NCBI RefSeq assembly: GCF_004010195.1
Contig: NC_057718.1
Coordinates: forward strand, 88,165,780-88,204,900
Origin: Chiloscyllium plagiosum
Taxonomy: Eukaryota
Direction: 5' to 3'
DNA: 39,121 bases
The notes under the pieces were generated by a model. That model was given only the letters and a program-made list of their open reading frames with translations. It did no database searches and was not told where the DNA came from. Position numbers and translations under genes: made by a program. Positions 1 through 39,121 of the stretch are shown in pieces (position 1 is the stretch's first letter; the number at the start of each line of letters is the position of its first letter).

Positions 1-416
1 GGGGTCATGGTCAAGGGGGCGGTAGGAAGAGGTGTCCTGGAGTTGGCGTTTGGCTTCAGCGATGTAGTCAAGGGGGCGGTAGGAAGAGGTGTCCTCGAGT
101 TGGCCTCATCCTAGTTTCTAACCTCCAGCAACACGATCCCCTGACTTGTCCGGGCTTGTCGGACCTGCCCAGCTCCTTTTCCACCTATCCACTCCACCCT
201 CTCCTCCCTGACCTATCACCTTCATCTCCTTCCGCACTGACCTATTGTACTCTATGCCACTCTCTCCCCACCCCCACCCTCCTCTAGCTTATCTCTCCAC
301 GCTTCAGGCTCTCTGCCTTTATTCCTGATGAAGGGCTTTTGCCCGAAACGTCGATTTTGCCTGTCCTCGGATGCTGCCTGAATTGATGTGCTCTTCCAGC
401 ACCACTGATCCAGCAT
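1..416. mobile_element. Penelope-like element fragment: probable inverted piece (1-104) joined to a + strand terminal repeat (105-416)
   Basis: Pyrimidine-rich leader, hammerhead and gatgctgcctga...ttccagcaccac tail shared with many copies in the window. Confidence 0.7.
325..352 (+). ncRNA. Minimal type I hammerhead ribozyme motif (Penelope-like element associated)
   Basis: CTGATGA-A-GGGC tttt GCCC-GAAA-CGTC; intact core and palindromic ACGT stem III; weak stem I. Confidence 0.75.
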
Positions 417-1410
417 CTTCCTCCTTCAGGCTGCTGAGCACAGACCTCTCCTTTTGACCCTTCTGGAAGAGGTGTGAGCAGAACTCATCCTGCCCCACAG
501 TGTGGACTCTGGACTGGAAGATTATCTTGGAGGCCTCCGAGGCCAAAGACCGAGGTTGGGTGGCCCCTCACTCCTGGAGATCCTCCGTGACATTGACCCC
601 CATCGTCTGCTGCAGGAGTAGGTTTTGCATACTTCTCTGGAGTTTGGACAATTTTCCCCATCTCTCTCTCTCTCTCTCACCTTCTGAACACCTGAAAGGA
701 TAAAGAACCTCTTGATGTTTCCCTTGATTGTTTCCCATCAGTTTGCTGGATACACACAAGTTCTTGGAGAACCTTTTTTTAAAATGTATTAATTTGTGAG
801 ATGTGTCATTGCTGGCTGGGCCAGCGTTTATTGCCCGTCCCTGGTTGCCTTTGAGAAGGTGGTGGTGAGCTGCCTTCTTGAACAGCTGCAGTCCATCTAT
901 TGTGGGTTAACCCACAATGCCATTAGGGCGGGATTTCCAGAGAATTCCAGTGTATAATCCCTTTTGAACTCCTCAATGTTTTCTGGCATCAACAGTTTCA
1001 GATGCCACATTCCCTTGCTGATCCACTGGTCATTCTGCAGATGTCAGTTGATCAGCAGGAGGCAGTGTCAGAGAAAGAACACTGGCTTGATGTCAGCGGA
1101 TCTGATTGAAAATGCGCGAGTCACAAACAGGAAATCTATCAATGAGTGGATAGATCCAACTGGCCGTGACCTGGTGTATCTACACTGTGCTTTGTCTGCA
1201 GGAGTGCTGAAGACATCATACAGCTTGATGACTTTAACCATTCCCATCAGGAATCTGAACATGCTGTCAGCCCATCCAGATTGTCCATCTGCATCAATAA
1301 TGCAGCCCATGCCTCTGGCCAGAATGCCCAGCCTGGACATCGTCAAAGCTGACACTAAATGAGCCTACTCCAGATGTTTGTCCTGGATCACGATGGCATT
1401 GAAGGGGTCA
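417..1410 (-). mobile_element. Decayed Tx1/L1-clade LINE ORF2 fragment (APE endonuclease C-terminus and linker), interrupted at ~775-950 by another LINE 3' end
   Basis: Minus-strand peptides CIIDADG...RYTRSRPVGSIHSLIDFLFV...IKPVFF and ASKIIFQSRV...CSHLFQK...SSLKEED, with frameshifts. Confidence 0.75.
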
Positions 1411-2966
1411 CCTACCATGCCATCTTCATTATGTGTTAACAAATTTGGGATTTTGTAATGAATATGTGAATAACAAACCCTAGTTCCCTCAGACAAACTT
1501 TGTCACTGCTAGTAAAGATTACTAGTTCTAATAAACCCTTACAATTAATCGATTTCCTGAGCTTTAAAAAATTTGGAGCAAAATACTTAACCCGGCAATA
1601 AGGTTCCCTGTCATATTACCTTTCAGTTGTGGTTGTGAGGATTTCACGGAACTGAGTTGGCAGTGGTTTCCTATCTCTTCTCTGCCACCCAATCCCACCA
1701 TCTTTTAATTCCTGCTATCCTGGAGGCTGATAAAGTTAGCAAAAGAAAGGAATACCTCCTTTCCCTGCTTGCCAAATTCCTAGCTTTATACTTTGTTACA
1801 TGCTACACACTGCCTCATGCACTCATCCATTTTCCCCTCACCAACCTCTACTCCTTTCATCCTTGACTCTCGCCCACTCAGCTGGTTGTCTCCAGCTTGT
1901 CTGCATGTGAGAGAGCTGGAATGGAGAGAATTGGTCATCAGTTTCTGAAAGTGGGCAGCCCCGCGATTGGTTGGTATTTAGTAAACTGTGACCTGTCAGT
2001 TTTACTCGTGGTCTCTCTGGTTGAGCTGTTTCCAACATTTCAAACAGCGTTGTGGGTTTCCAGACAGTCAGGTTGACATCAAATGAGAACTGTCAGTGGA
2101 AATGTAAAACTGACAGTTCTGGTTTTCTTCTTAGTTTGACTGGACAGAAAAACACGAAGTTGCCTGAAGGTTGGGTGTAACTATCAGTGAGACTGACAAG
2201 TTATTTTTAGAGTTGGGAGGCTGGAAACTAGAGTCCAGAAAGCAAATTTCCAAAATCTCAAAGTCAGATGTCCACCATTTGGCAGGAATTTCTCATTCCT
2301 AAAGTAAGAAATAGTTCTTAACGCGGCAAAAAAAACAAAGTACTGTAGCAATTCTGGGAACATCTGTCAAGAGAGAAACAGAATTAACATTTCGAGTCTG
2401 ATGATTCATCCTTCTTCTGAACTGTTGACAAAAGGGACAGAGCGGAACAATAAATGTGCTCCACAAGTAGTCCCAAAATATATAAAATCCCACTTCATCC
2501 ACCAAGATGACCAATTTACCTGACTGACTGCTATTCTGAATAAAAGCTACTCACACCAGGTTTCATCATTAACACAAAATAACTATATTTATTGTAGCAC
2601 TCTTCATTCTAACTAATGGTAGAGAAAAGAAAGTATTCTAAATCTACTACTAGATGACTTAACCAGACCCACTTTTAAAAAGATTTTTCATTTTGAAGAT
2701 AGGAGGAGGAAAGGGTAATTTGATACACATGGGTGGAGGATAAAGTGAACTCGGAACAAAATTCTGAAGATCAATGTCTAGATTATGAGTGGGTTACCTT
2801 GCCTTACACAGTTCCTTTTGATGTTTAGCATTTGTTGCATGTCGTATCTGTAAAACAATAGTTGATTCGGTGAACCTATATCTTTTCTTGGTAGAATTGT
2901 TTCTTTTAAGCTTTCTTGGTATTCTTGTATTTTCACCCAGTGTGGAAAGAGAGATGTTTTCAGATT

Positions 2967-3343
2967 GCACAGTGGCTCAGTGGTTAGCACTGCTGCCTCA
3001 CAGCGCCAGGGAACAGGTTTGACTCTAGGGTGACTGTCTGTGTAGAGTTTACACATTCTACCTGTGTCTGCGTGGGTTTCCTCAGGATGCACCGGTTTCT
3101 TCCCACAGTCCAAAGCTGTGCAGGTTAGGTGAATTGGTCATGTTAAATTGCCCATATTGTTCAAGGATGTGATAGCTAGGTGTGTAGGTTAGGTGCATTA
3201 GTCAGGGGACATGTAGAGCAATAGGGTAGGGGTAATGGGTCCGGGTGGGATACTCTTCGGAGGGTCACTGTGGACTTGTTGGGCCAAATGGCCTGTTTCC
3301 ACAATGTAGGGATTCTATGATGATTCTATAATGATGATGATGA
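2967..3343 (+). mobile_element. tRNA-derived SINE (HE1-like)
   Basis: A-box-like GTGGCTCAGTGGTTAG head, conserved body, CR1-like tail ending in GATTCTAT/ATG repeats; paralogues at 7568, 11169, 23228 and 34159. Confidence 0.85.
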
Positions 3344-3797
3344 AAGCACCGATGTCTCTGTCTCTGCCTGGCATCTTTAGATTTGTAGTAAACTGCAGTT
3401 CACCGAATCTGAGGGCTGTCACCATAGAGTCGTACAGCACAGAAACAGACCTTTTGGTCCAACCAACCCATGCTGACCATAATCCCAAACTAAACTAGTC
3501 CCACTTTCCTGTGCTTGGCTCAGTCTCTCTAGTCCTTTATGTACTTATCTATATGTCTTTTAAACCTAATAACTTCCTCTGGAAATGCATTCCATACATG
3601 AATCACTCTCTGTGTAAAAAAAATGCCCATGTCCTTCTTAAATCTTTCTACTCTCTGTTTAAAATTATGACCTCAGTCTTGAAAGCCCCCACCTCAGAGA
3701 AACATCTGCCATTCACCTTATCTACATTCCTCATAATTTTATAAGCCTCTATAAGGTCATCTTGCAACCTTCTACCCTCCAGTGAAAAAAGACCCAA

Positions 3798-3837
3798 GCA
3801 CTGATGATGTCGCCTAGCCAGGGGACGAAACGTTTGC
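3798..3837 (+). ncRNA. Minimal hammerhead ribozyme motif, second family
   Basis: GCA-CTGATGA-T-GTCgCCT agcc AGGgGAC-GAAA-CGTT-TGC; stem I GCA/TGC; GUU triplet. Confidence 0.75.
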
Positions 3838-3911
3838 AACAAAAACTTCCAGCTCGGCGAACAGAACCACAACAACGAGCACCCGAGCTACAAATCTTCG
3901 CACAAACTTTG
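3798..3911 (+). mobile_element. 114-bp Penelope terminal-repeat insertion with 9-bp TSD
   Basis: AAGACCCAA at 3789-3797 and 3912-3920; its 3' ~50 nt match the end of the RT-bearing element at 24918-25797. Confidence 0.85.
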
Positions 3912-4046
3912 AAGACCCAACCTATCCAGCCTCTCTTTATACTCAAACCCTCTCGCAAAATCGTGGTGTATCGGCTGAACCCTCTCCAGCTTAATATTCT
4001 GCCTGTAACATGGTGACCAAAACTGGACACAGTTCTCCAGAAGAGG

Positions 4047-4251
4047 AGAAAGTGAGGACTGCAGATGCTGGAGATCAGAGCTGAAAAATGTGTTGCTGGA
4101 AAAGCTCAGCAGGTCAGGCAGCATCCAAGGAGCAGGAGAATCGACGTTTCGGGCATAAGCCCTGAAGAAGGGCTCATGCCCGAAATGTCGGTTCTCCTGC
4201 TCCTTGGATGCTGCCTGACCTGCTGCGCTTTTCCAGCAACACATTTTTCTA
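4047..4251. mobile_element. Fold-back (palindromic) Penelope-like terminal-repeat insertion
   Basis: Inverted arms of ~80 bp around ~4165; TSD CTCCAGAAGAGG at 4035-4046 and 4252-4263. Confidence 0.85.
4162..4189 (+). ncRNA. Minimal hammerhead motif at the centre of a fold-back insertion (stem III CpG decayed)
   Basis: CTGAAGA-A-GGGC tcat GCCC-GAAA-TGTC. Confidence 0.65.
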
Positions 4252-4567
4252 CTCCAGAAGAGGCCTCATCACTTCTTGTACGACCTCAACATGACGTCCC
4301 AACTCCTATACTGAAAGATCTCAGCAATAAAGACAAGTGTTCTCAACACCTTCTTAGCCACCCTAGCTATATATGATGCAAACTTCAAAGAATTATGGAC
4401 TAGAACACCAAGTCTCTCTGCTCTACAATACTTCCCATGACCCTACTTTTAGTTGTATTCGTCCTGCTTTTGTTTGTTTTGCCAAAATACAATACTTCAA
4501 TTTATCCAAAATTAAACTCCATCTGCTGCTCAAGGTCTCTTTGTAATCTTAGATAACCTTCTTCACT

Positions 4568-4767
4568 CCCACCAAAAGAGAAAATGCTGGAAAATCTCAG
4601 CAGGTCTGGCAGCATCTGTAAGGTGAGAAAAGAGCTGACGTTTCGAGTCTAACTGACCCTCGAAATGTCAGCTCTTTTCTCACCTTACAGATGTTGCCAG
4701 ACCTGCTGAGATTTTCCAGCATTTTCTCTTTTGGTTTCAGATTCCAGCATCCGCAGTAATTTGCTTT
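4568..4767. mobile_element. Fold-back insertion of the U3-A8 family terminal repeat
   Basis: Near-perfect inverted arms ~4572-4645 and ~4658-4734; TSD TAACCTTCTTCACT at 4554-4567 and 4768-4781. Confidence 0.85.
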
Positions 4768-5541
4768 TAACCTTCTTCACTGTCCACCATACAACCAATC
4801 TTGGTGTCATCCACAAACTTACTAACAATGCCTTCTATATTCTCATCCAAATCATTTACATAAATGACAAACAAAAGTGGACCCAGCACCGGTCCCCATG
4901 GAACACTGCTGGCCACAGGTTTCCAGTCCAAAAAGCAACCATCACTCTCTGTCTCCTGCCATTAATCTAATTTTGGATCCAGTTGTGTGTGTGTGTGTAT
5001 ACATATATAGAGAGAAAGAGAGTACCAAGATTCTTGTAATCAAGGAAAGATTACCTGACATATATCCTTTACATATTCATACACAAGAATCTTGGTACCA
5101 TTCTGCCTGAAAGTATCCCCCTCACTGCTTTGCTTTGAAAAGCAATATTGTCATTTACAGCTAAAAGTATCCACCACTTGACCTTCCTAAATTGGAAATC
5201 CCTCCTGATATTTCAGCTATACAGGAGTGTCCAATTGCTATTCCAGTTTATAGTCCAAACAGGAAAAATACATTGTCCCATACACTTTAGGTTCTCCATG
5301 TTTCTGTTCTAGTTTTTGAATGCTCCTTTTTTCTATTAGTTATGACTTTAAATGCTTCAAGAAGTAACTTGTAACTTATTCTCTCTCTTTCCACACCTAC
5401 ATTTATAGCAAGTTTTAAGTATCACTTTTGCAGATGAGGGTTTAGTGAGGGGTCTGTTTCAAAAGAAGTTGTAAAATTCAGTAGTAACACTCCGGAGAAG
5501 ATCTAAATAAAAAGGTGAGAATCCAACCTAAATTATGTATA

Positions 5542-5866
5542 AAAGCAAATTCTGCCCTCTGCTTCTGCCCTCCCCTCTGCTTCACCCATCCCCCACATAT
5601 TTTGTCACATAGCACTGGCTTCAGCCTTGGTCATTCACAGCTCCTAATCTCTTTATAATCTCTTTATGCACTGTCATTATCACCTCTTTATTGCTACCTT
5701 TGCTTCTGGAGCCACGACTCACCTTCTCTCAGCCTAGTATTTCTCTATTTCTCCCTTTTTTTAGCTTTGACAAAGGGTCAGTTAGACTCGAAACGTCAGC
5801 TCTTTTCTCTCTTTACAGATGCTGCCAGACCTGCTGAAATTTTCCAGCATTTTCTCTCTTTGGGTT
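5542..5866 (+). mobile_element. Penelope-like terminal-repeat insertion (U3-A8 family)
   Basis: TSD CTAAATTATGTATA at 5528-5541 and 5867-5880; begins with a 10-nt inverted copy of the family 3' end (AAAGCAAATT). Confidence 0.8.
5763..5801 (+). ncRNA. Minimal hammerhead motif with U3-A8 core variant
   Basis: AGCT-TTGACAA-A-GGGTC agtta GACTC-GAAA-CGTC-AGCT; stems I and II pair fully. Confidence 0.7.
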
Positions 5867-6174
5867 CTAAATTATGTATATATTTGTGATGGTGTCAGTA
5901 TTTTAAGGACTTGTCTTTGATAGTCGCTGTTGTTTCTTTTTCATAATACATTTATACAGCTTTACGTTTTTTATTGAGTGTTTTTGACTGGACAAATGCA
6001 AAATTTGTAACCTCGTATTCTGCCTTGGTTGCAATTATTAATCTAGACCCCCTTCATTCACACATAGTTTTGTACCAGGAAGGGATGGATTTCTTGTAGT
6101 TGATTGACATCAGTTGATTCTCATTTGAGCATTGATCAGGTTGGCTAGCTCCCTGTTAGGTTAAGCAGGAGGCT

Positions 6175-6775
6175 AGCAGAACACAACAAGCCAGACAGCA
6201 TCAGGAGGTGGCAAAGGCAACATTTCGGGTAGAACGCTTCTTCAGGACTTGGGGTGAGTGTAAGGGGAGCTGCAGATAAAGGGGGTGGGGTTGGGGGTGA
6301 GATAGGAACAAGTTGAACACAGGTAGAGGGTATGACCTGATTGGTTGATGGGACGAATGAATCCAGCTGATAGCTGGAAGGAAGGGCCGGTGAGAGGAAT
6401 GGAAGGAAGGGGGCGGGGTTGGGAAGGAAGTCAGGGAATGGGAAGGGAGGTTATTTGAAACTGGAGAACTCAATGTCGGCTGCCCAGGCGGAAGACGAGG
6501 TGTTGTTCCTCCAATTTGCGGTTTGGTTCAATGTGGCAATGGAGGAGGCCAAGGGTGGCCATGTTGAAGAGGGAATGTGAAGGGGAATTAAAATGGACGG
6601 TGACTGGGAGGTCAGGTAGGCTGAGAAACTCGGCAAAACATGCTGAGTTTACATCTGGTCTCCCAGGCACCTTCCCCTGCAAACCATTCCCTTCAGCAAT
6701 CCTTGGTTGGTGCCAGTCTCCCCACCACTCCCCCCCCCCCCCCCTCGAACCTCCAGACACCTTCGCCTGCAACAT
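6175..6775 (-). mobile_element. Penelope-like (Neptune-type) fragment with GIY-YIG C-terminus and decayed hammerhead (6219-6245); short inverted piece at ~6660-6775
   Basis: LPVTVHFNSPSHS...LGLLHC...RKLEEQHLVFRLG on the minus strand, homologous to 15890-16110. Confidence 0.75.
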
Positions 6776-7750: not shown

Positions 7751-8007
7751 AGAAGGTATGGTACTCGAGGTCTTAAAATGCTTAAAGATAGATAAATGCT
7801 TGGGACCTGATCAAGTGTATTTCAGGACATTGTGGGGAGCTAGGGAAGAAATTATAGGCCCCCCGGGCAGAGATATTTATATTATCTACAGCCACAGGTG
7901 AGGTAATGGAGGATTGGAGCATGGCTAATATTGTGTCTTTACTTAAGTAAGGCTGCAAGAAAAAGCCAGGGAACTATAGATCAGTGCGCCTGATATCAGT
8001 GGTGGGT

Positions 8008-8175
8008 GAGAGTCGAAAAGTGTGGTGCTGGAAAGGCACAGCCGGTCAGGCAGTATTTGAGGAGCAGGTGAGTCGACTCTCCTGTTCCTCAGATGCTGCC
8101 TGATCTGCTGTGCTTTTCCAACACTGCACTTGTTGACTCTGATCTCCAGCATCTGCAGTCCTCACTTTCTCCTAG
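8008..8175. mobile_element. Fold-back Penelope-like insertion centred on GAGTCGACTC
   Basis: TSD TCAGTGGTGGGT at 7996-8007 and 8176-8187; inverted arms meet at 8074/8075. Confidence 0.85.
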
Positions 8176-8311
8176 TCAGTGGTGGGTAAGTGGTTGGAGG
8201 GGAGTCTGAGTGATAGGATTTATGTGCATTTGGAAAGGCATGGACTGGTTAGAGATAGTCAGCATGGCTTTGTGTGTGGGAAATTGTGTCTCATAAACTT
8301 GACTGAATTTC

Positions 8312-8339
8312 CTGATGAAGGGCTTTTGCCCGAAACGTC
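8312..8339 (+). ncRNA. Minimal hammerhead ribozyme motif
   Basis: CTGATGA-A-GGGC tttt GCCC-GAAA-CGTC at the 5' edge of a ~130 bp insertion into a CR1 fragment. Confidence 0.72.
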
Positions 8340-8599
8340 GACTCTCCTGCTTCTCGAATGCTGCCTGACCTGCTGTGCTATTCCAGCACCACACTCTTGA
8401 CTCTAATCTCCAGCATCTGCAGTCCTCAGTTTTGTTGAATTGTTTTGAGGATATGTCCAAGAAGGATATGAGGGCAGAGCAGGAGACGTTGTCTACATGG
8501 ACTTTATCAAGACCTTCAACAAAGTTCCGCATGGTAGACTGGTTTGTAAAGTTAGATCACGTGGGATCCTGAGTAAAAAATAATTTCTCATTTTTGTTC

Positions 8600-10119: not shown

Positions 10120-10990
10120 AATACTGCGTAAGATAGGTGGAGGGGCAGGTAGTATTGAGGCAGCAGGGAGCTGCAGAAAGATTTAGACAGGTTAGGAGTG
10201 TGGGCTAAGAATTGGCAGTTGAAACACAATGTGGGAAAGTGTGAGGTAGGAAGAAGAGGCATGGACTATTTTCTAAATGAGGAGAAAATTCAGAAATCTG
10301 AAGTACAAAGGGACTTGTGCGTCCTCGTACAGGATTCTTTTCAGGTTAGCTTGCAGGTTGAATTGATAATTAGGAAGGCAAATACAATGTTGTCATTCAT
10401 CTCGAGAGAACTAGAATATAAAAGCAGGGATGCACTGCTGAGACTTTATAAGGCTCTGGACAGACCACATTTAGAGTATTGTGAGCAATTTTGTGCCCCA
10501 TACTTCAGGAAGGATGTAATATCCCTGGAGTGGGTCCAGAGGAGGTTCACGAGAATGATCCCAATAATGTAAGGCTTAACATATGAGGAACGTTTGAGGA
10601 CTCTGGCACTATACGCGATGGAGTTTAGAAGGATGAGGAGGGATCTGATTGAAACTTACGGAGTACTGAATGGCCTGGACAGAGTGGATGTTGGAAGATG
10701 TTTCCATTGGCAGGAGAGATGAGGACCTGAGGGCACAGCCTTAGAGTAAAGGGAAGACCCTTTAGAATGGAGATAAGGAGAAGCTTTTTTAGCTAGAGTG
10801 GTGAATCTGAGGAGGCCAGGTCATTGAGTATTTTTAAGACAGAAATAGATATGTTCTTGATTACCAAGGGATCAAAGGTTTATGGGGAGAAAGTGTGAAA
10901 ATGGGTTTGAAAACTCTACCAACCATGATCCAATGGTGGAGCACACTCGATGGGCTAAATAGCCTAATTCCTGTTTCTATGGTCTTATTG
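10120..10990 (+). mobile_element. CR1-like LINE 3' end
   Basis: WAKNWQLKHNVGKCEV...[40 protein letters not shown]; tail ...gtttctatggtcttat. Confidence 0.9.
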
Positions 10991-10994
10991 ACTT

Positions 10995-11945
10995 CATATC
11001 ATTATGAAGTGAGATCCAGATTCCCATCATCCTCTGGGAAAAATATATATTCCTCACACCTCCTCTTAACCTTCCGCCCCTTAACTAATCTATGTCTCCG
11101 GTCATTGATCCATCCACCAAGGGAAAACAACTTTTCTTCCTGTCTATGCCACTTATAATTCTATATATGGGCAGCACAGTGGCTCAGTGGTTAGCACTGC
11201 TGCCTCACAGCACCAGGGTCCTGGGTTTGATTCCCACCTGTCTCTGTGGAGTTTTCACATTCTCCCTGTATCTGCTTGGGTTTCCTCTGAGTGCTCCGGT
11301 TTCCTCCCACAATCCAAAGATGTGCAGGTCAGGTGAATTGGCCTTGCTAAATTGCTCACAATGTTAGGTGTATTAGTCAGGGGTAAATAGCAGGTAGGGG
11401 AATGGGTTTGGGTGGGTTTCTCTTCAGAGGGGCAGTATGGACTTGTTGGGCCGAAGGGCCTGTTTCCATACTGTAGAGAATCTAATCATAGAATCTAATA
11501 TCTCAATCATGTCCTCCCTCAGTCTCCTCTGTTCATTGGAAGCAACACAAGTTTATCCTATCTCTCGTTGTGCGTAAACCTGTACAGCCCTGGCATCATC
11601 AAGGTAAATCTCCTCTGCACCACCTCCAGTGCAATCACGTCCCTCCTTTAATGTTGATTCTAGAACAAGGGTTTGTCCTTCCCCAACTGCACCACTTCAC
11701 ATTTATTCAGTTGAATTTCTTTTGCCACTATCAGCCTGTCTAAATCCTCCTGTAATCTCAGGCTATATTCAGGCTCACTGTCTACCACCCTTTTGTATCA
11801 GCTGTAAATTTCCTGATCAACCCGACGAAATTCAAGTGCAAATCATTTAGACAAACTGCAGACAGGAAGGGGCCACTGGACACAGGTTTCCGGTCACAAA
11901 AACATCCTTTAACCATCGCCCTCTGTTTCCGGCCACTCACCCAAT
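10995..11945 (-). mobile_element. Decayed CR1-like fragment abutting the promoter, split by a SINE
   Basis: Motifs parallel to the 3423-4985 copy (aaatctcctctgcac, atcatttagacaaa, ccactggacacagg). Confidence 0.6.
11169..11499 (+). mobile_element. HE1-like tRNA-derived SINE
   Basis: GGGCAGCACAGTGGCTCAGTGGTTAG head, B-box-like GGTTTGATTCC, GAATCTAAT tail repeats. Confidence 0.88.
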
Positions 11946-13834: not shown

Positions 13835-14022
13835 CTCCTCCAAGTCCCCCCTCCCTACCTTTTATCTTCTCCTGCTGAACACTCTCTGCTCATTCCTGAA
13901 GAAGGGCCTGTGCCCGAAACGTCGAATCTCCTGTTCCCTGGATGCTGCCTGACCTGCTGTGCTGTTCCAGCAATAAAGTTTCAACTTTGATCTCCAGCAT
14001 CTGCAGTCCTCACTTTCTCCTC
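13835..14022 (+). mobile_element. Penelope-like terminal-repeat insertion with intact hammerhead
   Basis: Family tail ...ctgcagtcctcactttctcc; flanking GAACATT at 13828-13834 and 14023-14029. Confidence 0.8.
13892..13927 (+). ncRNA. Intact minimal hammerhead motif, sense strand of MTHFD1L intron 1
   Basis: ATTC-CTGAAGA-A-GGGC ctgt GCCC-GAAA-CGTC-GAAT; 4-bp stem I, GUC triplet. Confidence 0.78.
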
Positions 14023-23227: not shown

Positions 23228-23440
23228 GGGCAGCAATGTGGCTCAGTGGTTAGCACGGCTGCCTTACAGCACCAGGAACCCGGGTTCGATTCCAGCCTCA
23301 AGCGACTGTCTGTGCGGACACATTCTTTCTGTATCTGTGAGGGTTTCTTCCCACAATCCAAAGATGTGCATGTTAAATTGCCTATGGTGGATTTGATGTG
23401 CCAAATGCCTGCTTCCACACTGTGGATTTTATGATTCTAG
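23228..23440 (+). mobile_element. Internally deleted HE1-like SINE
   Basis: GTGGCTCAGTGGTTAG A-box and GGTTCGATTCC B-box; ATGATTCTA tail. Confidence 0.8.
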
Positions 23441-27809: not shown

Positions 27810-28037
27810 CCCCAACAAAAAGAGATGTTGCTGAAAAAGCTGAGCAGGTCTGGCAGCATCTGCGAAGAGAAATCACAGTTAGCATTTTAGGTTAGGTCCA
27901 GAACAGTTCTGAGGAAGGGTCACCAAACCCGAAACATTAACTCTGATTTCTCTTCACAGATGTTGCCAGACCTGCTGAGTTTTACCAGCAACTTCTAAAT
28001 TTGCCCCTGATTTACAGCATCTGCAGTTGTTTTAGTT
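27810..28037. mobile_element. Fold-back Penelope-like insertion
   Basis: Inverted arms around ~27890-27930; TSD TTTGTTGATTTT at 27798-27809 and 28038-28049. Confidence 0.8.
27905..27942 (+). ncRNA. Minimal hammerhead motif, another family (stem III decayed)
   Basis: AGTT-CTGAGGA-A-GGGT caccaa ACCC-GAAA-CATT-AACT; stem I AGTT/AACT. Confidence 0.65.
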
Positions 28038-31000
28038 TTTGTTGATTTTATGCTGTGAATGTTTTTAAATGGTTAAAAATGCAGAAAGAGGATATCCAAG
28101 ATGGTGGTGATCTAAGAAGATCGCACTGCAGACCTCCGCAACGCAGCACAAGTGGGACGAACCTTCAACCTGTCCAACCCGAACCATCGTGATATCTTGG
28201 GACTCCGGAAAGATCTGGAGTCCCAAGAAACTTCTAAAAGTTATCTTACCTGCGTTTCCAGCCATCCAGAGATGCTGATAAAGGGAGGAGTGTCCAAGGC
28301 TGGCCTGTGGCCCAGCCTGCAGGATCCTCTGAGTCGATTACTTTCCAGGCCCTGGTGAACGAGCTTGTGAAATCTCAAGCGATGCTGGGGAAACAGATTA
28401 AAGAGAAGCTGGCTCCAATCTCTCTCATGCTGCAGAAGCATGAGCAGCAGCTGGGAGACCTGAAGAAGAGGACAGATGAGGTGAAGCACAGGGTCATAGT
28501 GGTGGAAGCTGATGCCAGTTCATCCAAAGATAGAATCCAAGCCCTAGAGACGCAGGTTCGTAATTTGCGCAACCAAGTGGATGATCTTGAGAATAGGGGC
28601 AGGAGAAAAAAAATTCAGATCATTGGTCTGCCTGAGGGTAAGGAAGATGAGCGGCCTGTGGAATTTATTGAGGATTAGCTGCTGAAATTCCTTGACTTGG
28701 AGGCTGGCATGAGAGGATTGAAGATAGAGGGGGCTCATCGGGTCACAGCGTGGAGATTGGGTCTGGGTCATCGTCCTCTTCTAGTGCGGTTCCATCATTA
28801 CTGGGATAAGGAGAGTGTCATGGAAGCTTCCAGAATCCAGGGGGCTCTATGATCATGTTCTTTCAGGACCTTTCAGCGGCAGTGATCCAGAAACGAAAAT
28901 CTTGCGTTGGTGTCAAGAGAAAACTGAGGGAGCTTGGGATTCAGTACTCCGAGGTATCTGGCGATGCTTCAGATCACCTTAGATGGATCCATACGTCTGA
29001 GAAGACAAGAGACTTTGTGGACAAATTAACCTAATTTGAACAATTTTAGTATGTATAAATGTTGTTTGGGTATGTCTTTATCGTTTTGTAAAAGGAACGG
29101 AGCAAGTCTGGTTGTAGCTTTAATTTTCTATTTTTTTTCTATTGATAGGAAAAAAATATTGATAGTTTAAACCAAATTATGTTTGGCGGTGGTTGAGATG
29201 TACATTTTCACTTTCTAAGTTAGGATGTACCAAAGGATGGGTGGGGTATTCCTTTTTTTAAAAAAATGTTTTATTCATATTGGTATTCTATGGTGTGTTT
29301 ACTTTTTTTTCTTCTGCTTGTGTTTATGGTGTGGCTCTAGCTGGGAGAAGTGAAGGTGGCTGGGATGTTTAAATGCCTACTTTTGGGTAGTTTGGGATAG
29401 GTAGTTGCCGCCTCTGGGCAGAGGGTGAGTTCCCCCACTCAGCACTGTTAGCACTTTTTATGTTGATAGGTATTTTTTGTTTTTGTTTTTAATTTTTAAT
29501 AGTTTTGTAGGTTTGTTAAATCTAGTGATTTTAGTTTTTGTAGCTTTTATACTTGGTGGATCATGTGGCACTAAGGCTCAGCGATTTGTGGTTCGGGTTC
29601 CTCCTTTCTGGAATCTAAATGTTATTGCAGAAGGTTATGGCTAATGACTTGATTAAATGGTGTACCTGGAATATCAAGGGAAATCACTCTCCAATTTAAC
29701 GGAAGAAGGTAATCTTGAGCCTTAGAAAGGAAAAGGTGGATATTGCCTTGTTACAAGAGACCACTTAGATGACAAGGAGCATCTGAAATTACAGCAGAAT
29801 GGTTTTAACCAAGTTTATTTTTCATCATTTAATACCAGAAGTAGGGGAGTGGCTATATTGGTTAGGAAGAATCTCCCATTTAAGTTGTTAATGTGTTAAA
29901 AACACATACGGGAGGTTTGTAATTCTTAAAGCCTTGATAAATGGGGAAGAATATGGTGTTTTAAATACTTATTGACCTCCAGCTCATTCCCTTAAATTTT
30001 TGGTAGATGCTTTTTCTAAACTGGTAAGTCTCAAGTCCCGGCACATCATTATGGGGGAGATTTTAACTGTCTCATGTATCCCACAGTAGACAGGTTGCCC
30101 AATGGTCCCTCGGTACAAACTAAGCAGTTAGTGGATATGTGTGGGGAGTCAGGGTTGGTGGACGTCTGGAGGCATCTCCACCCTACAGGCAGGGATTTTA
30201 CGTTTTTCTCCGATCCGCACAGATGTCACACTAGGTTTATTTTGGACCCCTGCGGTAATCTTGGATTTGGTGGCATGTTGTACGATTGGTAATATTACCA
30301 TCTTTGATCATGCTCCAGTGTACGTTATGATTAAGGACGTTTACAATGGGTTCAAGGCACTGCCGAATGTATCCCTTTATCCTTGAGGATAATAAGTTTG
30401 TGGAATATTTCTCTCAGGAATTTTGGGCATTCCTAGACATCAACTTTAGGCTCGGTTTGTAGTTCATCTGTCCTCTGGGAAACTGCCAAAGCCTATGCTA
30501 GGGGGTTAGTTATTTCTTACTCTGCCAGTAGGAAGTGGCAGAAGGGGGAGAAGCATGGTTGAAGGCAGCCGAGAAGGCTTACTTTGACTAGACCCTCGTT
30601 GGTCAAACTATAGAGGATTACAGCGCTGCGGTCTGCTTTGAATTCTGTGCTCATGCAGATGGCAAAGAAGAAGCTGGCTTTTGCAAAGCAAAGATTATAT
30701 GATCACGGTGACAAGCCAGGCAAATACTTAGTGTATCTCGCCAGGAAAAGGAGTGCCCACAAGTCATTACAGCAATTAGAGAAGGGTCTGGGAGCCTAAC
30801 ATGTGATTCTAAAAAGATTAATATGGCGTTAGAGATTTTACTCTAAGTTATAACAATCCGACGATTGTGAGGAGGCACAGGCCAAAATTGAATCTTTCTT
30901 TAAGGATCTGAAGCTCCCAGGCGTGACTCCTGAACAAGAGTCCTTTCTGAATATCCCCTTATCAGAGCAAGAAGTGCAGGAAGCTGTGAGGCAACTTCAG

Positions 31001-32197
31001 CATGGAAAGGTGCCCGGTCCTGACGGACTTCACAGTGAATTCTATAAGGAATTTATAAGTATACTGTTAGGCCCGATGCTCCATATTCAATGGTTCATAC
31101 AGTCATGATTGTCTCCCACCATTTATGAGGGGCCAATATTTCACTTATCCTTAAAAAAAGGAGGACCCGGACGACTGTGCTTCGTACAGACCCATCTCAC
31201 TCTTAAATGTGGACTTTAAAAGCTTCTCTAAGGCTCTCATTAAGGTTGGAGACTGTGTTATCTTCTGTTATTAAAGAGGATCAGACTGGCTTCATAACGG
31301 GTTGCAGATCCTCCAATAATGTTAGGAGGCCGCTTTATGTAATTCAAGCATGTCAACAATATCAATACAGGAATTGGTGATTTCTCCAAATGCAGAGAAG
31401 GCATTTGACCAAGTTGAGTGGGCATACCTTTTCTATACTCTGGAGAGATTTGGTTTGGACGAAGTCTTTATAAGATGGGTTCTGTATGGTGGCTCTCTTG
31501 TGACGGTCGTCACCAACTGGGTACGATCAAGCAATTTTATTATTTTTAGGAGCAGCCGGCAGGGCTGTCTCCTTTCACCAATGCTTTTTAGGTTGGTGAT
31601 TGGATCTTTGGCGGAGGCCATTCGTGGAGATCCCAATATATCAGCTCCAGACGTGGGGTCCAAGTTACATAAGATTTTGTTGTATGCAGACGATGTCCTA
31701 GCTTTTTTTTGACAAATCCAGCAGTTTCAGTACCTTGCGCAATGCAATGCATTTGCGCGTTTGGTGCTTTTTCAGGGTACAAGATTAATTTTGTGAAATC
31801 AGGCTATGCCTATGGGTGGTCTTACGAAGGAGCTTGGTCTTGAAGGCGACTATAGATTCCCATTTAGGTGGTCATGGGGGTTTTGTGTATTTGGGCATAT
31901 TCATTACTCCAGTTCTGGATTGACTGTTGAAAGCCAATTTTATCCAATTATTTGATAAAATTAAACGAGACCTTCAAAGATGGGAGGCACTTCCCGTCTT
32001 GTAGTCGGATCGGATAGCGCTTATTAAAATGAATATTCTTCTCCGTTTGCTATACTCTATACGGATGCTCCCCCTGATTTTCAATAAGCAAACATTCAGG
32101 AGGCTGAACAGCTGGTTCAGTTCCTTTATTTGGCATTGTATGCCGCCCCTCATTAAATTAGCTAAACTGCAACTGCCCCACAGAACGGACATTAAAA

Positions 32198-32391
32198 ATT
32201 GAAAAATATGGTGCTGGAAAAACACCGCAGGCCAGGCAGCATCCGAGGAGCTGGAGAATTGACGAAGAAGGGCTTATGCTCCAAACGTCGATTCTCCTGC
32301 TCCTCGGGTGCTGCCTGGCCTGCTGTGTTTTTCCAGCACCACATTTTTCAACTCTGGTCTCCAGCATCTGCAGTCCTCACTTTCTCCTAGT
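32198..32391. mobile_element. Fold-back Penelope-like insertion inside L1 ORF2
   Basis: TSD GGACATTAAAA at 32187-32197 and 32392-32402; arms meet in a truncated hammerhead at ~32260-32290. Confidence 0.85.
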
Positions 32392-33940
32392 GGACATTAA
32401 AAGTTACCAACTAAGCTCGCTTTTGTCCTACGTGAGTGATTGGGCTTGTGGGGATCCTCTTTCTATATGGCTAGCTATCGAAGCCTCTCAGGCAAGATGC
32501 CCCCTTACCAGTTTGCTGTTTTTGGATAAAATGAGGACAGTTAGACAATATTGCCATAACCCATTTAGTCATCAATACTGTTAAAGCATGGAAGGCCATT
32601 TGGCAGAGGGAAGGCAGTATTGGCAAAACATCTTAGTTTACATCTTTTGTGTTTATGCTGGGTTTTCAACTGGGGATGATAGATTCAGGGTTTAAACGTT
32701 TGACAGCTTAGGGTGTGTCTTGCATGGGTGATTTTATTTGAGGGAAACTTAATGATGTCCTTCGATCAGTTAGTACGGAAGTACGAGTTATTTAATAGAG
32801 ACGTCTTTTTTTCCAAGTTAGGGATTTTATTTAAAAAAAACCACACTTTTGACTGATCCGTACAAATCTGACATGGGGGGGGCGCTCTAAGTGGTAAGAG
32901 TACACTTTCTGTCAGTACTTTATATCATCATTTGGGGGTGCCCACTTGATTGACTCTGCAGAGTGTGGGAGAGAGAGCTGGGTGTTGAAGTTTCCTCAGA
33001 GGCATGGGAGGATATTTGGGAGAATGCAAGGAAGATATCAATTTGCAATAGACCCCATATTTTACAGTTGAAGATTCTCCATAGGATCCACTTGGCTCCG
33101 GACCATTTGTCAAAATTTAAACCACTGGTATCTTCAACATGTCCCAAGTGCAAGGTCTGTACAAGTGCTCTTGCCCATTGTCTCTGGTCTTGTGTTAGGC
33201 TTTAACATATTGGAATGCTGTGGCGAGTGCAATGGAGAGGATTTTGGATGTAAGGGTGGAGAAGGACTCCATCTCTCTACTTCTGGGCCTGCCCATTGTA
33301 TTCCCTGTAGAAGTGCATAAGAAAAGACTTCTCAATATTCTCATGTTCCGTACAAGAAAGAATATCTTGCTAAGTTGGATATCCGAAAACCTCCTGAGCC
33401 TGTCAAGTTTGCAGAAGATTGTTATGGAACATATTCCCTTGGATTTTCTCACAAATATGGTACACCACAAAACTGAGAATTCTTATGGCATACCTGGGCA
33501 CAAATTTATCTGCCATGCTAACAAGGGTGTTTATATAACTGTAACGATTGTGTTTTACGAGTCCAATATTCAGGGAGGAGGAACTGGGAATGTATGAGCG
33601 TTTTGTTTGGCTGGGCTGAGTTTTTTACTATTTATTAGTTTATTGGTTATTTATTTATTTAGTTAAAATAGCTATACTTTTTATCTGTACTTTTCTATAT
33701 ATGCTTATACATTTGTACATGATGGTGGGTTGGGTTTTTTAACTTGATTTTTTGTATTGTTTTGAATTGTATTGTTTTGCTAGTTTGTTTGTACTCTTTG
33801 CTACCTTCCCCCACCCTTCTCGCTGACCTATCACCTTCATGCCCACCCCCCACTCACCTATTGTCGTCTATGCTACTTTCTCCCCACCCCTACCCTCCTC
33901 TCATTTATCTCTCCACCCTTCAGGCACTCTGCCTGTATTT

Positions 33941-33968
33941 CTGATGAAGGGCATTTGCCCGAAACATC
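33941..33968 (+). ncRNA. Minimal hammerhead motif (ACGT to ACAT) in a terminal-repeat fragment (~33790-34030) nested in the L1 3' UTR
   Basis: CTGATGA-A-GGGC attt GCCC-GAAA-CATC. Confidence 0.65.
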
Positions 33969-34158
33969 GATTTTACTGCCCCTCAGATGCTGCCTCAACT
34001 GCTGTGCTTTTCCAGCACTACTAATCCAGATTGTATTGTTTTGTACTTGTAATATTAAAAAATCTATTTTTCCAAGAAAAGTATATTTTAAAAAGCAGAA
34101 ATGATCAAATGTAGACTAAATGAAAGAGTAAAAGTTCTACACAAAAAAGAAAAAGGAG

Positions 34159-34482
34159 TTTAGATTAGATTAGATTAGATTATTTACAGTGTGGAAACAG
34201 GCCCTTCGGCCCAACAAGTCCACACCGATGCGCAACCCACCCATTCCCCTACATTCACCCCTTTACCCCTTTACCTAACACTACGGGCAATTTAGCATGG
34301 CCAATTCACCTGACCTGCACATCTTTGGACTGTGGGAGGAAACCGGAGCACCCGGAGGAAACTCACGCAGACACGAGGAGAATGTGCAAACTCCACACAG
34401 TCAGTCGCCTGAGTCGGGAATTGAATCCGGGTCTCTGGCGCTGTGAGGCAGCAGTGCCAACCACTGAGCCACCATGCCGCCC
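34159..34482 (-). mobile_element. HE1-like SINE with (TAGAT)n tail
   Basis: Reverse complement begins GGGCGGCATGGTGGGCTCAGTGG; B-box-like region; pentamer tail at ~34161-34181. Confidence 0.9.
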
Positions 34483-34955
34483 ACAGTTTGTTTATTCAGA
34501 GCTGTTCACAACCACAAGATATTTGAAAGCCTAATTTACAAACATTAAAATTTTTTGAAATGTGATAATGTGGGCAATTCAATAGTTAATTTATGCACAG
34601 CACGGTCCCACACAATGTGATCATGGTCAGATTTTGTTTTTTTGATGTTGATTGTGAGATTAATATTTATTAGGACACCACCGATAACTCCTCTGTTCCT
34701 CTTCAGAAAGTAATTGTTCACATGGCGCATGATCTTGAGAGATTAAATGGGGCCTTGATGCCATATTTCATTCTAATAGATCCTCTGTAATGTAGCACTC
34801 CTTCATATTGCCTGAGGATTAATCAGGCTTAATTATATTCTGACGCCTAGCATGGAATTCAGTTGTTTTAACTCTTATGTTCAAAGTTCTGTAAATATTC
34901 AAATTAATTATTTGGCGAATGTTATAATGTATTAAAATCTTTTTTTTAAAATTAG

Positions 34956-35009: not shown

Positions 35010-36169
35010 GTAACTGAATTTTCTCATCCTTATTTTTATAAGTTAACTTCTTAGACTGCTTCAAACGCCTGAAAATTGGGTGTAATATGGATGAACAGTT
35101 CACCATTGCTTAGTAATAAAGAGCAAAATTACTTCTATTCTTAATCAGGGCTTGTGCAGGTTACATAAAATTTCATAACTTGGTTCCATGTCTTACAATG
35201 TATGTATCCTAACAGATTTTTGCTGGTGTTTATGCTCTTTACTATCCTCCTGCCACATTATCCTACATTGCTTTCCCCATATAAACATTCACCTTCATCT
35301 TAAATACAGTTGTGTTCTTCACATTAACCAGTTTTGTAATAGTAAATTTTACTCACTCAGCACTCTGGATGAAGAATGTTCTCTTAGTTTTGGACACTCC
35401 TGCAAAAGACAATATCTCTTCATTTACCTGATCATAACTTTAAAGACCTCAGGTAACCCCTCAGAACTCTCCGCTCCGGAAGAAAGAGTCAAAGGATTTC
35501 TTCTTGATTCTGGTATCATCCTTGTGGCTTTGGAGACCAGAACTGGCACACGTGTGGTCAGAACAAGGTTCCATATGGAGTTAACATAAACTTTTCAATT
35601 CAATCCCTCTAAAATTGTAGAAAAGCTGTTTTATAAACTTGATCTTAAATTGAAGCTTCCCACTACAAATTGTGACCTGGCAGCCTTCCACCCTCCATAA
35701 ACCTGAGCTTGCACCAAGTCCAGTTCACTAATTGCCTCTGAGTTTACTGTTAAACGTTAACACAGTGAGGCAGCAACTTGATTTAAAGGTTCTAAGCCTT
35801 GTGTTCAAATGTCTGCTCCATAACTTCATCCCTCCATGTCTCTAGACCCTGATTTAGCCCCATAATTCACAAACTGTTCCTTCATTTTTGGTCACACTGT
35901 TTCCTTTACCCTACCATTGGTGGCTGAACCTTTAGTTGGCGTGGCTGTAAGTTACACAGTTTCATCCCAACACCTCTGTGTCTCTTTAGTTCCTCTTATG
36001 CTTTCCTTGAAACCAGTGTGCTTGACTCAGCATTTGGTTATCTGTCTTAATTTCTGTCTATCCAGCTTGATGGCAAATTCTGCTTGGTTATGTAATTATG
36101 AAATACTTTGATGCTCAAGTCCACATTATAAGTAGAAGTTGAGTAATTGTATTTTCCTTGATGGTACAG

Positions 36170-36291
36170 CTTTTAGATGAGATCATGAAGCTAAATGATG
36201 ATCCTAAAATCAGGGGCTTGGTTCTGCCCCACAACCTTGTCATGAGTGATGCAGCAATAAATGCAGTGCTTCCTGAGAAAGATATTGATGG
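36170..36291 (+). CDS. MTHFD1L: MTHFD1L coding exon 5 (122 bp)
   Basis: tacag| acceptor, GG|GTAAGT donor; LLDEIMKLNDDPKIRGLVLPHNLVMSDAAINAVLPEKDIDG with the FolD-family PEKD(V/I)DG motif. Confidence 0.95.
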
Positions 36292-37419
36292 GTAAGTGTC
36301 CTCTATTTTTGGCAATATATAAGCATTCTCCACTAGCATCTGCTGGTGCATCATGAGAGTTTCACATTCATTGGAGAGGCAAGCCTTGGGGCAGATACAA
36401 ATAGAATTTAAGACACATATTAATATTAAATTACAGAGCATGGATATCAGATGATTGCAAACATGATTTGAGAAGTGACCGGAGAATGGATAAGAGAAGC
36501 ATAGCAAGGTAGTGCAGAATCAAATAGGACTGGGGAAGATAATGAAGTTAGGATATATTTGCTTATGTGGATAAGATTTAAAATCAAAGCACTTCTCCTT
36601 AGAGAAGCCAACATTGGGAAGGTGTTTTGACAAAAGAACTGAAAGTGACAGGAGACAAAAACTTTTATGTAAGAATGGACAGGATCTGGAATGGCCTGAG
36701 TGGTGAAAACAGATTTAGTTGTACCTTTCAAATAAAATTTGGATGAGCATCTGGAGGGGAGAGATATCAAGGCTACAGAGAAATGGTGGGGGTGTGGAAG
36801 AAACTAAGTTGCTTTTGAAGTGAGCCAATATTTTCTTACTGTGGTGTAACTGTTCTATCATTTTGTGCTGCAATAGCAGCTGATATAGGTCAATGAGCAG
36901 AGGGATGATGGGTGAATGCCTCTTGATTCAAGTTAGAGAACAGGATTTTGGATAAATTGAAGGTGATGACCGATGGAAAGCAGTCATTGGAAGCAGGGGA
37001 GTCTGGAGATGAAAACCACTTGTCAGTTAAATGCATGAAGTTTGCTAATCTCACAGTCAGAGGAGTAGTGCCAACACATTTTCAAAACACATTCTCTCAA
37101 TGCAGGCATTGCGGGCAAAGCAGTTATTTAGTGCCTACACTAGTTACTCAGAGAAACTAGTTGGGATGTCCCATCTTGAATCATTGCAGTCTGTGATGTA
37201 GGTTCACCCACATCATTTGGAATGCCTGCTCTGCTGTTGAAAATACAGCATGTATGTGAGTGGCCCACATTTCTTTCTGCCCCATGCTAGGATTGTAGTG
37301 AATATCCAGGAAAATATACAGACTCTCTATTGTTGCGTAGAGTCTATGTTCTGTGTGGAAATTGATTTGCAACAAAAGTCTGGTTTGTAACAATCTATTC
37401 ATGTGTCCTTCCTTACCAG

Positions 37420-37520: not shown

Positions 37521-37609
37521 GTGAGAAGTGCAGGCACACCACATGGAATCACTCATTCCTCAAACATGTAGTGGCCTCTGCATTGACTCCTTTTACACCT
37601 GTCTTACAG

Positions 37610-37746: not shown

Positions 37747-38374
37747 GTAAGAACCCTCATTCAACCTGTGAGGTATTGAAAATAGGAGAAAGCAGTTTAA
37801 AATTAAACACTAAATAAAAACTGAAACCTTTCGCTTCCAGTTCAGTGAATTCTGAAACATTAATTCTGATTTCTTTCACATGCTGCCAGATGTGCTTAAC
37901 TTTTCCAGCAATTTTTGTTTTTGTTTAAACACTACTTAGAAGTTTCAGTCAAATAGTTCATTAAAACTAACTTCAAAGAAAAGAGTTAACAAAATTCTGA
38001 GAGGAATTGCCTAAACCAAGTAAGTAGTTTTTACCATGTGAAATATATTTCTCAATATGTTTTCAATTGCTATTTTACGCAATTTCCTTTTAGCTGAATT
38101 TCAGAAATGCACTACAAGAAAATCATTTAAAATTTTGCAAAAAAAGGGAAAATTTGAGGAAATCATTCTTGCAGTTCACATGATTTTTTACCTCTTTTTC
38201 TTGAAGCTGTTTAGTTGTTGCAGAGAATTATAGGATATCTCTGGAGAGGAAAAATGCAAGTGCTTTTCCTATACCTGAAATTTTGCTGTAGTCAATGTTT
38301 TTTGTGCCCAGTTCAGGTATCCTCAAAGTTTGGAGCTAGGGAAAAGGCAGAAAAAAGCTGCTTTGGAATAATTC

Positions 38375-38965
38375 TTTTTCACTTGTTCAAGGGATGTGGG
38401 TGGCATTGGCAAGGCCAGCATTTGTTTCCCATCCTTAATTGCTATTGAGAAGGTGTTGATGAGCTTCAGCTAATGTAGTCTATGTGCTATAGGTGTATCC
38501 ACAGTGCTATTAAGGAGTTCTAGGATTTTGATCCACTGACAATAAAGGAGCAGCAATGTAGTTGCAAGTCACAATGGTGTGCAACTTGGATGGAACTTGT
38601 AGGTGGTGGTGTTCCCAAGCATCTGCTATTCTTGTTCTTCTATGTTGTGTAGATTGCAGGTTTGGAAAGTGGTGTTGAAGCAGGCTTCATGATATACTGC
38701 AATGCATCTTGTTATGCTGTCACTGTGAAGGGAGTGAATGTTACAGTTGGAGGATGGATTTCTAATACGATAGGCTGCTTTGTCTTGGATGATGTTGAGC
38801 TGCTTGAGTATTGTTGGAAGTGCACCCATCCAGGCAATTGAATAGTATGGAGTCCAGGATGTCAGGTAAGCCATCTGATAAAAACAGTGGAGGATTCAAG
38901 AGAGTTTGTGATGGGATAAAGTTGACAGTCAGCTGTATATATGTGAAAACTTGACACTGTTCCCA
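38375..38965 (-). mobile_element. LINE 3' end (CR1/L2 group)
   Basis: YSIAWMGALPTILKQLNIIQDKAAYRI...NIHSLH resembles a LINE ORF2 C-terminus. Confidence 0.65.
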
Positions 38966-38969
38966 CTTC

Positions 38970-39121
38970 TGGATCAGTGGTGCTGGAAAAGCACAGCAAT
39001 TTAGGCAGCATCCGAGGACAGGCAAAATCGATGTTTCGGGCAAAAGCCCTTCATCAGGAATAAAGGCAGAGAGCCTGAAGCGTGGAGAGATAAGCTAGAG
39101 GAGGGTGGGGGTGGGGAGAAA
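38970..39121 (-). mobile_element. Penelope-like terminal repeat running off the window end
   Basis: Near-identical reverse complement of 261-413. Confidence 0.88.
39030..39057 (-). ncRNA. Minimal hammerhead motif (ACGT to ACAT)
   Basis: Reverse complement reads CTGATGA-A-GGGC tttt GCCC-GAAA-CATC. Confidence 0.65.

Follow-up and report, generated by a model that had tools for sequence, protein, structure and literature searches.

The 39,121-nucleotide stretch of the Chiloscyllium plagiosum genome analyzed here (NC_057718.1, positions 88,165,780 to 88,204,900 of the forward strand; hereafter the window) is densely populated by short hammerhead motifs. These are sequences of minimal type I hammerhead ribozymes (min-HHRs) residing in the pseudo-long terminal repeats (pLTRs) of Penelope-like retroelements, and we consider it probable that the short copies, or stubs, arose by tail-primed copying up to the 5' end of uncut RNA. 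This reading draws on direct observations of the carrier elements, the position of the motif within them, covariation between families, CpG decay, a pile-up of 5' ends, the rarity of starts at the cut site, and pairs of stubs enclosed in one target duplication.

Copies often begin at the front edge of the hammerhead

Junction positions were counted from C3 of the hammerhead core, and our claims about them rest on families A, B, and F. The 5' junction falls within -9 to +2 in 85 of 214 A and B copies, and 39 of the 214 extend beyond -45. Among A and B copies reaching +2 in the first 1 Mb, 61 of 101 end in -9 to +2; for the 36 bases beyond, the count is 10 of 40. Held-out DNA (0.4 Mb), for which the prediction had been set beforehand, gave 24 of 33 in the same interval and none of nine in -45 to -10. 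Family F behaves alike, with 31 of 54 junctions in -9 to +2. The mode lies at -4/-3, the first bases of stem I, within the sequence TCATTC, which we take to fit the initiator consensus. Upstream of the junction there is either an inverted arm or unrelated DNA (unrelated in 34 of 35 non-inverted cases). A splice acceptor as the cause of the 5' edge was dropped, as the upstream DNA is not shared; a peak at -2 in Poseidon and part of the family D peak proved to be artefacts of subfamilies with other upstream sequence.

Most families carry a TATA box or a related motif at a similar distance upstream: TATAAA at -38 in F and at -35/-37 in C, TTTATC at -35 in A, CTTATC at -37 in B, and a motif of the TTTATC/CTTATC type at -35 to -38 in E. 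Family F, which has the TATA box furthest upstream, also ends further upstream than A and B (12/35 versus 14/88 at -7 or before, P 0.03).

Copying of cut RNA would give starts at +28. We found 10 of 214 starts at +27 to +30, where 3.5 are expected (P 0.003); on inspection, four of the ten were miscalls and were moved elsewhere. Genome-wide, one subfamily of 74,749 copies has 208 starts at +28, 57 at +30, and 47 at +26. Among the matches listed, 67 of 100 starts at +28 begin with CAG, which is the end of an inverted arm; in loci L181 and L054 this arm ran to -4/-3 and was joined to the other arm via stem I complementarity. The remaining +28 starts (about 69) are near background and, after correction for a 19% catch rate, amount to approximately 0.5% of copies, like the flanking positions, so cut-site starts were rejected as a major class. 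Because starts are common at the front edge and rare at the cut site, the stubs were likely copied from uncut RNA.

The pile-up could alternatively mark something other than an RNA 5' end, if the reverse transcriptase (RT) stalls or jumps to another template on meeting the folded hammerhead or the pyrimidine tract just upstream. Junction microhomology inside the motif would suit such an explanation, as in the GTCGAC centre at 8072-8077 of the window and the stem I arms of L181 and L054, and a transcription start is not seen in the reads of RNA run X20. However, a polymerase heading 5' should halt on reaching the stems from their 3' side (+19 to +31), while the observed peak lies past the structure at -4/-3; moreover, the upstream cliff is sharp in the held-out DNA, and the peak moves with the TATA position between families. 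We therefore regard stalling or switching as unlikely.

Head-to-head pairs

A search of 140 stretches spread over contigs C1-C38, which are not a random draw, recovered 443 remnants in 1.339 Mb, or one per 3.0 kb. About 40% of these (192/443) are arranged head to head, with one long and one short tail in 78 of 96 pairs, and four of the five pairs in the window lie inside one 13-15-base target duplication. The insertion form is an inverted 5' copy with a tail on one end and a target duplication. RNA read through such a pair would fold into a long hairpin, with the ribozyme buried inside.

The pairs at 4044-4256, 4571-4773, 8007-8176, and 32196-32391 form near-perfect hairpins. It is possible that head-to-head hairpins are a large source of double-stranded RNA; searches of them against Rfam returned weak microRNA-like scores only.

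Carrier elements

The protein-coding carriers of the motif were recognized from longer natural frames. One of 754 residues matches RVT_1 (E 9e-8) and GIY-YIG (E 2.5e-4), contains DKG and YIDD, and runs into the motif. A frame of this length was needed before domains matched; the short window fragments and the 424-residue L145 frame gave no match to Pfam, nor did the L145 frame to PDB. The linker between RT and endonuclease has the form CxxxxCxxC (CNRRRCNTC in the 754-residue frame, CNCKKCKTC in another hit), and a CX2-5CxxC linker is reported for Neptune-type elements (Craig et al. 2021, PMC8557442). The Neptune label is given here from sequence features, and the Poseidon clade name by likeness to the anole element PAc.

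Of 59 protein matches reaching the C-terminal part, 47 have the tail motif behind the endonuclease (a hand count, duplicates included), and in the Neptune type the motif sits about 220 bases behind the endonuclease C-terminal matches. Some copies in each of families A, B, C, D, E, and P have a Penelope protein ending less than 600 bases upstream. The family of the motif at window position 3801 lies downstream of a Poseidon-type protein; its arrangement is visible in L125, a full-length Poseidon-type copy (RVT_1 E 8e-7) that starts at C3, has its ATG at A9, and is organized as pLTR-frame-pLTR with two motifs 2,502 bases apart. No full-length Neptune copy between direct pLTRs was found in 50 loci picked for RT or N-terminal hits, many of which are gapped.

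The first-pass annotation, which was made from the letters of the window, proposed that the motifs spread mainly through short non-autonomous copies. This is not borne out for families A to E and P, which are linked to protein and do not combine an own promoter with the absence of a coding family, as expected of a short interspersed nuclear element (SINE). Short copies have no upstream TATA-position motif and so look like dead-end products; they are mostly truncated ends of protein-coding families. Family F is distinct: none of its 81 copies has a Penelope protein upstream, and they share only 330-420 non-coding bases there, including the TATA box, so F may be non-autonomous.

A related possibility is that the stubs themselves constitute an independent non-autonomous family, SINE-like or retrozyme-like, composed of hammerhead and tail and using the Penelope protein. 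Most copies indeed consist of hammerhead and tail (about 155 matches on the tail versus 20-25 reaching more than 50 bases upstream), family F has the upstream structure just described, and animal retrozymes have been argued to be non-autonomous Penelope derivatives (bioRxiv 10.64898/2026.07.22.740005, in the part available). Yet stubs are 85-99% like the protein-linked long copies, their 5' ends are spread over some 12 bases and tail off downstream, the same 39 A and B copies continue beyond -45, the two arms of a pair break at different places, and, unlike retrozymes, stubs do not occur in tandem arrays. An independent family thus seems decidedly unlikely, and we retain truncation of protein-coding elements as the source of the stubs.

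Long F copies were seen at L176:820(-) and L191:2280(+), and an F tail also occurs in the window at 18111-18198. Two of 30 loci with a Neptune N terminus contain a long F copy head to head with the truncated Neptune frame, as if two different RNAs had been used in one insertion. Loci L171-L200 belong to a young Neptune subfamily whose copies are 97-99% identical with many long open frames, and which, judging from these sequences, was probably recently active.

Ribozyme architecture and covariation

The motifs contain the min-HHR core, CUGANGA and GAAA..UH around stem II, and 84 of 124 A and B copies keep 11 of 11 core bases. Their first-pass identification as minimal type I hammerheads of Penelope-like elements, in several families with an extra base between A9 and stem II and with exchanged stem II sequences, agrees with our results: the extra base is found in all seven groups, as is G10.1-C11.1, and stem II reads GGGC/GCCC in A and B and GGAGC/GCTCC in F. 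Other details of that description hold in part. The palindromic ACGT stem III is present as ACGU, with no loop III, in six groups, but it is AGCU in F and CpG-decayed in many copies. The GUC cut triplet applies to A, B, and C, but D, E, and the 3801 copy have GUU, and F has CUA. Stem I does covary across families, but the ATTC/GAAT pairing is a minority form; at the third stem I pair, the 124 A and B copies have U-U (81), U-C (13), or U-A (9). Stem I has four pairs in C, D, and E, three in F and P, and two plus U-U plus one in the dominant A and B, where the min-HHR criterion is 4-5 pairs; copies 325 and 8312 have two contiguous pairs. Family F, a hammerhead with the AGCU palindrome and A17, was absent from the first-pass list.

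Over A, C, D, E, F, and P, 21 of 24 stem I pairs are Watson-Crick, which is matched by one of 720 permutations of the 3' arms; in this table families were assigned by best hit rather than by structure, and E and C are represented by four and six copies, respectively. Core pair 3-8 is C-G or U-A, pair 15.2-16.2 is C-G or G-C, and pair 10.2-11.2 has changed from G-C to A-U in 11 of the 124 A and B copies. The stem I pairing together with the U3-A8 and ACGU/AGCU swaps supports real covariation between families.

Constraint in source lineages and decay in copies

Subfamily-shared changes occupy 0 of 1,237 non-CpG core cells versus 257 of 5,370 tail cells; these are cells, not events, and overstate the number of independent events. 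Because shared changes are absent from the core and common in the tail, the source lineages likely kept the hammerhead core by selection, and inserted copies decay. Private changes reach 12-19% at CpG sites, G12 included, and 3-6% elsewhere, with CpG loss after insertion hitting C11.1-G12 and C17-G1.1. The motif can be protein-coding, however, which confounds this core conservation.

Neptune frame L160:3327-5591 crosses the 3' repeat and stops 20 bases beyond the hammerhead cut site.

Proposed mechanism

In the mechanism we propose, the pLTR promoter would start RNA at the front of stem I, approximately 30 bases behind the TATA box or TATA-position motif. The element protein would bind the tail about 85-130 bases downstream, nick target DNA, and reverse-transcribe the uncut RNA as far as its 5' end; that priming takes place internally at the tail is suggested by analogy with the anole Poseidon element in vitro. 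The products would be promoterless stubs of 90-130 bases, which would be dead ends, and one insertion would often contain two of them. Head-to-head pairs would result from fold-back or from priming of both DNA ends, and priming at the far pLTR would yield the longer truncated copies. Source elements would retain the ribozyme, possibly for clipping the 5' tip: an in vivo cut, if any, would remove about 32 bases from the RNA 5' tip, including the start codon in Poseidon, and would most likely occur in a dimer or with help from the element protein.

More tentatively, the hammerhead at the 5' tip of a capped RNA could be an off-switch that removes the cap (and the Poseidon start codon), such that only uncut RNA is retrotransposed, with the stem I arms serving as fold-back microhomology that leads to palindromic insertions; on balance we lean slightly away from this extension. 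If true, about a million fossils would constitute an in vivo record of the RNA start and of the near-absence of copied cut RNA.

Several observations weigh against copying of uncut, promoter-initiated RNA from elements under ribozyme-specific constraint. TTTATC is a non-canonical TATA box, and Poseidon has no TATA-like motif within 45 bases. A prediction of zero starts at +27 to +30 failed at face value, and the CAG class was viewed in context in two cases only (L181 and L054). No full-length Neptune copy with an upstream repeat was found among the 50 loci. Read ends of run X20 show no pile-up on the Neptune stretch, and the Poseidon stretch has an edge effect only: six read ends at 6932 coincide with the stretch edge and show nothing. 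Private changes are lower in the core than in the tail (3.4% versus 5.5%, P 0.002), a gap that base composition and alignment-based copy selection may have caused. Finally, the motif is in frame in Poseidon, and in L160 it lies in the last part of the Neptune frame.

Abundance, folding, and RNA reads

One exact 30-mer occurs 15,996 times in the 3.56-Gb genome. Across the whole genome, a strict core pattern has 162,222 matches versus 93 in the reversed control; the intact pattern, which also admits U3-A8 and AGCU and requires an undecayed palindrome, has 177,340 versus 2,124, or one per 20 kb. The genome therefore holds about 175,000 intact-looking cores. In 100 10-kb stretches at round coordinates (955 kb), we found 47 structure-passing motifs and none in the reversed control. 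The sampled remnants scale to roughly 1.1 million in 3.4 Gb; 68 of the 443 (about 15%) retain the intact pattern, and 10 of these 68 intact motifs have a same-strand neighbor within 4 kb (10-kb stretches).

The very large copy number anticipated in the first-pass annotation is thus evident in both the intact-pattern matches and the remnants. Its spacing of one motif per 3-4 kb describes all remnants genome-wide (one per 3.0 kb) but not intact motifs (one per 20 kb), and a ribozyme load of that density is not supported, given the few intact remnants, the 192 of 443 lying head to head, and the 10 of 68 with a same-strand partner. Motif counts accordingly overstate active ribozymes. A local tandem array of approximately 47-base units of the family A tail was seen at G000:C16:42817618-42817928.

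Nearest-neighbor energies, which ignore core contacts, predict that family B prefers an inactive hairpin fold and place the double-hammerhead dimer at -9.3 kcal/mol versus -16.4 (A) and -22.8 (B) for two monomers; the double hammerhead is predicted to be disfavored least in F and P. Published dimer cleavage is low or absent in the available text of two reports (PMC4209133, PMC11167929).

Hammerhead-plus-tail sequence is present on both strands in RNA reads of run X20, whose organism may be a relative. The run contains reads of both element types, with no end pile-up at the cut site. The strand bias of this run was left unused: it is opposite in the two element types, and internal oligo-dT priming may account for it.

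A large load of active ribozymes cutting host pre-mRNAs or flanking transcripts under host-level selection could cite the number of intact-pattern matches, these reads of both strands, and the slightly lower private change in the core, but it is very improbable given monomers without stem III, a two-pair stem I in the dominant families, the predicted inactive hairpin of B and dimers scoring worse than two monomers of A and B, free CpG decay of G12 and the cut site, and the location of all five intact window copies on the host-exon strand.

Comparison with known systems

Much of the architecture is already known from Cervera and de la Pena 2014 (PMC4209133), the available text of which reports large numbers of min-HHRs in the pLTRs of Penelope elements and describes the extra base together with the palindrome, the covariation, and a U3-A8 variant. 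As there, the motifs here have no helix III, a palindromic 15.2-16.2, G10.1-C11.1, an extra base after A9, a short stem I, and many covarying families, and they occur mostly as single truncated copies with some opposite-strand pairs. Here, however, stem II has 4-5 pairs in most families and the dominant stem I has a U-U mismatch. The scale also differs, with about 175,000 intact-pattern motifs compared to approximately 4,000 in coelacanth and 9,000 in Xenopus, although the descriptors differ. The accessible portion of that paper makes no mention of 5' ends piling up at the front edge.

The anole Poseidon element PAc (Frangieh et al. 2024, PMC11167929, as far as its available text goes) shares with our elements a start codon in the hammerhead, a tail located some 105-115 bases inside the frame, 3' ends of two classes, an uncut RNA template, and no RNA-seq ends at the cut site. 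Its protein primes internally, extends both strands at two tail sites, and uses uncut RNA as its main substrate. The evidence for PAc is in vitro, whereas ours comes from insertion fossils of mostly Neptune-type families. Elements described by Craig et al. 2021 (PMC8557442) and Arkhipova et al. 2013 (PMC3846280), in the parts available, likewise show 5' truncation, an inverted 5' copy, target duplications, a 30-40-base tail on one end, palindromic junctions, and a putative pLTR TATA box and initiator; in contrast, the unit here shrinks to hammerhead plus tail and numbers about a million remnants.

Animal non-LTR retrozymes also carry type I hammerheads and are pLTR-related (bioRxiv 10.64898/2026.07.22.740005). 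In the available portion of that preprint, they are present in the one cartilaginous fish sampled, and eight of nine tested dimers were uncleaved. Retrozymes are head-to-tail tandem arrays, whereas copies in the window are solo or head to head and do not have the retrozyme arrangement.

Our search found no paper on Penelope hammerheads in cartilaginous fishes or on start sites there, most subscription papers and supplements lying outside its reach. The present analysis adds a junction test on held-out DNA, the spacing of the TATA motifs, a genome-wide count of starts at the cut site, and the junctions formed through stem I, and is notable for its scale: the copy number is far above published counts and sufficient for a base-by-base map of template ends. 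The role of the hammerhead in Penelope-like elements has been called unclear (PMC8557442), and cleavage is dispensable in vitro (PMC11167929), according to the available text of each. The junction map argues against cut RNA as the template, and so against a cut-and-circularise model for these families, and it names one candidate start site.

Features of the window

The pattern CTGANRAN-N(4-30)-GAAAYRTY has 10 matches in the window versus 0.33 expected, and none of 100 shuffles reaches 10. Nine of the ten are element copies; the match at 20746-20787 is not. With a library of natural copies as query, we found 26 hammerhead-bearing repeat-end remnants, about twice the genome average (approximately 13 expected). 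All 16 sites in the first-pass list map to hammerhead-bearing repeat ends, but not all are intact. Among the ten given as full motifs, core and palindrome are present in five (325, 3801, 5767, 8312, and 13896); of the others, 16327 reads CCAAAAC (G12 to A), and a CpG transition has turned ACGT into ATGT at 4162 and into ACAT at 27909, 33941, and 39057-39030(-). An Rfam scan of the window matched no hammerhead model at E up to 10. The features are as follows.

116-418, + strand: family B pLTR end of Neptune type; intact core and ACGT with C3 at 325; stem I of two pairs plus U-U
2347-2426, - strand: decayed family D stub; C3 position about 2414
3793-3913, + strand: Poseidon-type stub; C3 at 3801, intact, U17, ATG within core; an 11-base flanking repeat overlaps the 5' edge
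4044-4256, both strands: two family A stubs, head to head; C3 of the + strand arm at 4162, palindrome decayed to ATGT; target duplication of 14 bases
4571-4773, both strands: head-to-head pair of family C stubs; 5' half of core missing in both arms; a target duplication around the pair was looked for and none found; not in the first-pass list
5574-5866, + strand: family C pLTR end; hammerhead 5767 intact, U3-A8 core swap, stem I AGCT/AGCT
6165-6617, - strand: family E copy; decayed hammerhead at 6245 and, at 6479-6616, a C-terminal piece of the endonuclease
8007-8176, both strands: two family A tails, head to head, with the GTCGAC palindrome as their junction; target duplication of 15 bases; not in the first-pass list
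8309-8432, + strand: solo stub beginning 3 bases before C3 (8312); core intact, stem I of two contiguous pairs
13835-14022, + strand: family A pLTR end; hammerhead 13892-13927 intact with four-pair stem I, the sole window copy whose predicted lowest-energy fold is stems I and II
14649-15237, - strand: Neptune-type copy truncated at its 5' end; decayed hammerhead at 14777, pieces of the endonuclease at 14925-15237
15486-16428, + strand: Neptune-type copy truncated at its 5' end, with remnants of the RT thumb and the endonuclease; G12 changed to A in hammerhead 16327
16595-16731, - strand: family A stub; decayed hammerhead at 16723
18111-18198, + strand: family F tail remnant without core; not in the first-pass list
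22349-22482, + strand: decayed family D stub
24480-24561, + strand: family A tail without hammerhead
24906-25646, - strand: Poseidon-type RT-thumb/endonuclease fragment, of the family carrying the 3801 motif
27812-28040, both strands: family D head-to-head pair; C3 at 27909, ACAT decay; 13-base target duplication
32196-32391, both strands: family A head-to-head pair; core lost; 14-base target duplication
33811-34030, + strand: family B pLTR end; C3 at 33941, ACAT decay
37854-37914, + strand: family D tail remnant
38967-39121, - strand: family B pLTR end; C3 at 39057, ACAT decay; 97% like the 325 copy, extends past the window edge

An MTHFD-type exon (tetrahydrofolate dehydrogenase/cyclohydrolase) lies at 36152-36294 on the + strand (Pfam THF_DHG_CYH, E 7e-5) with GT at its end, so the window is probably at least partly inside an MTHFD-type gene; all five intact motifs share the strand of this exon. 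Copies of a tRNA-like SINE family, presumably HE1, occur at 2962-3321, 11168-11498, 23228-23437, and 34160-34483. Long interspersed nuclear element (LINE) 3' fragments, which we take to be CR1/L2-like, are found at 10159-10994 and 23663-24270, and a longer element, presumably L1/Tx1-like, at 28238-28678, 31326-31712 (RVT_1, E 6e-13), and 33199-33597.

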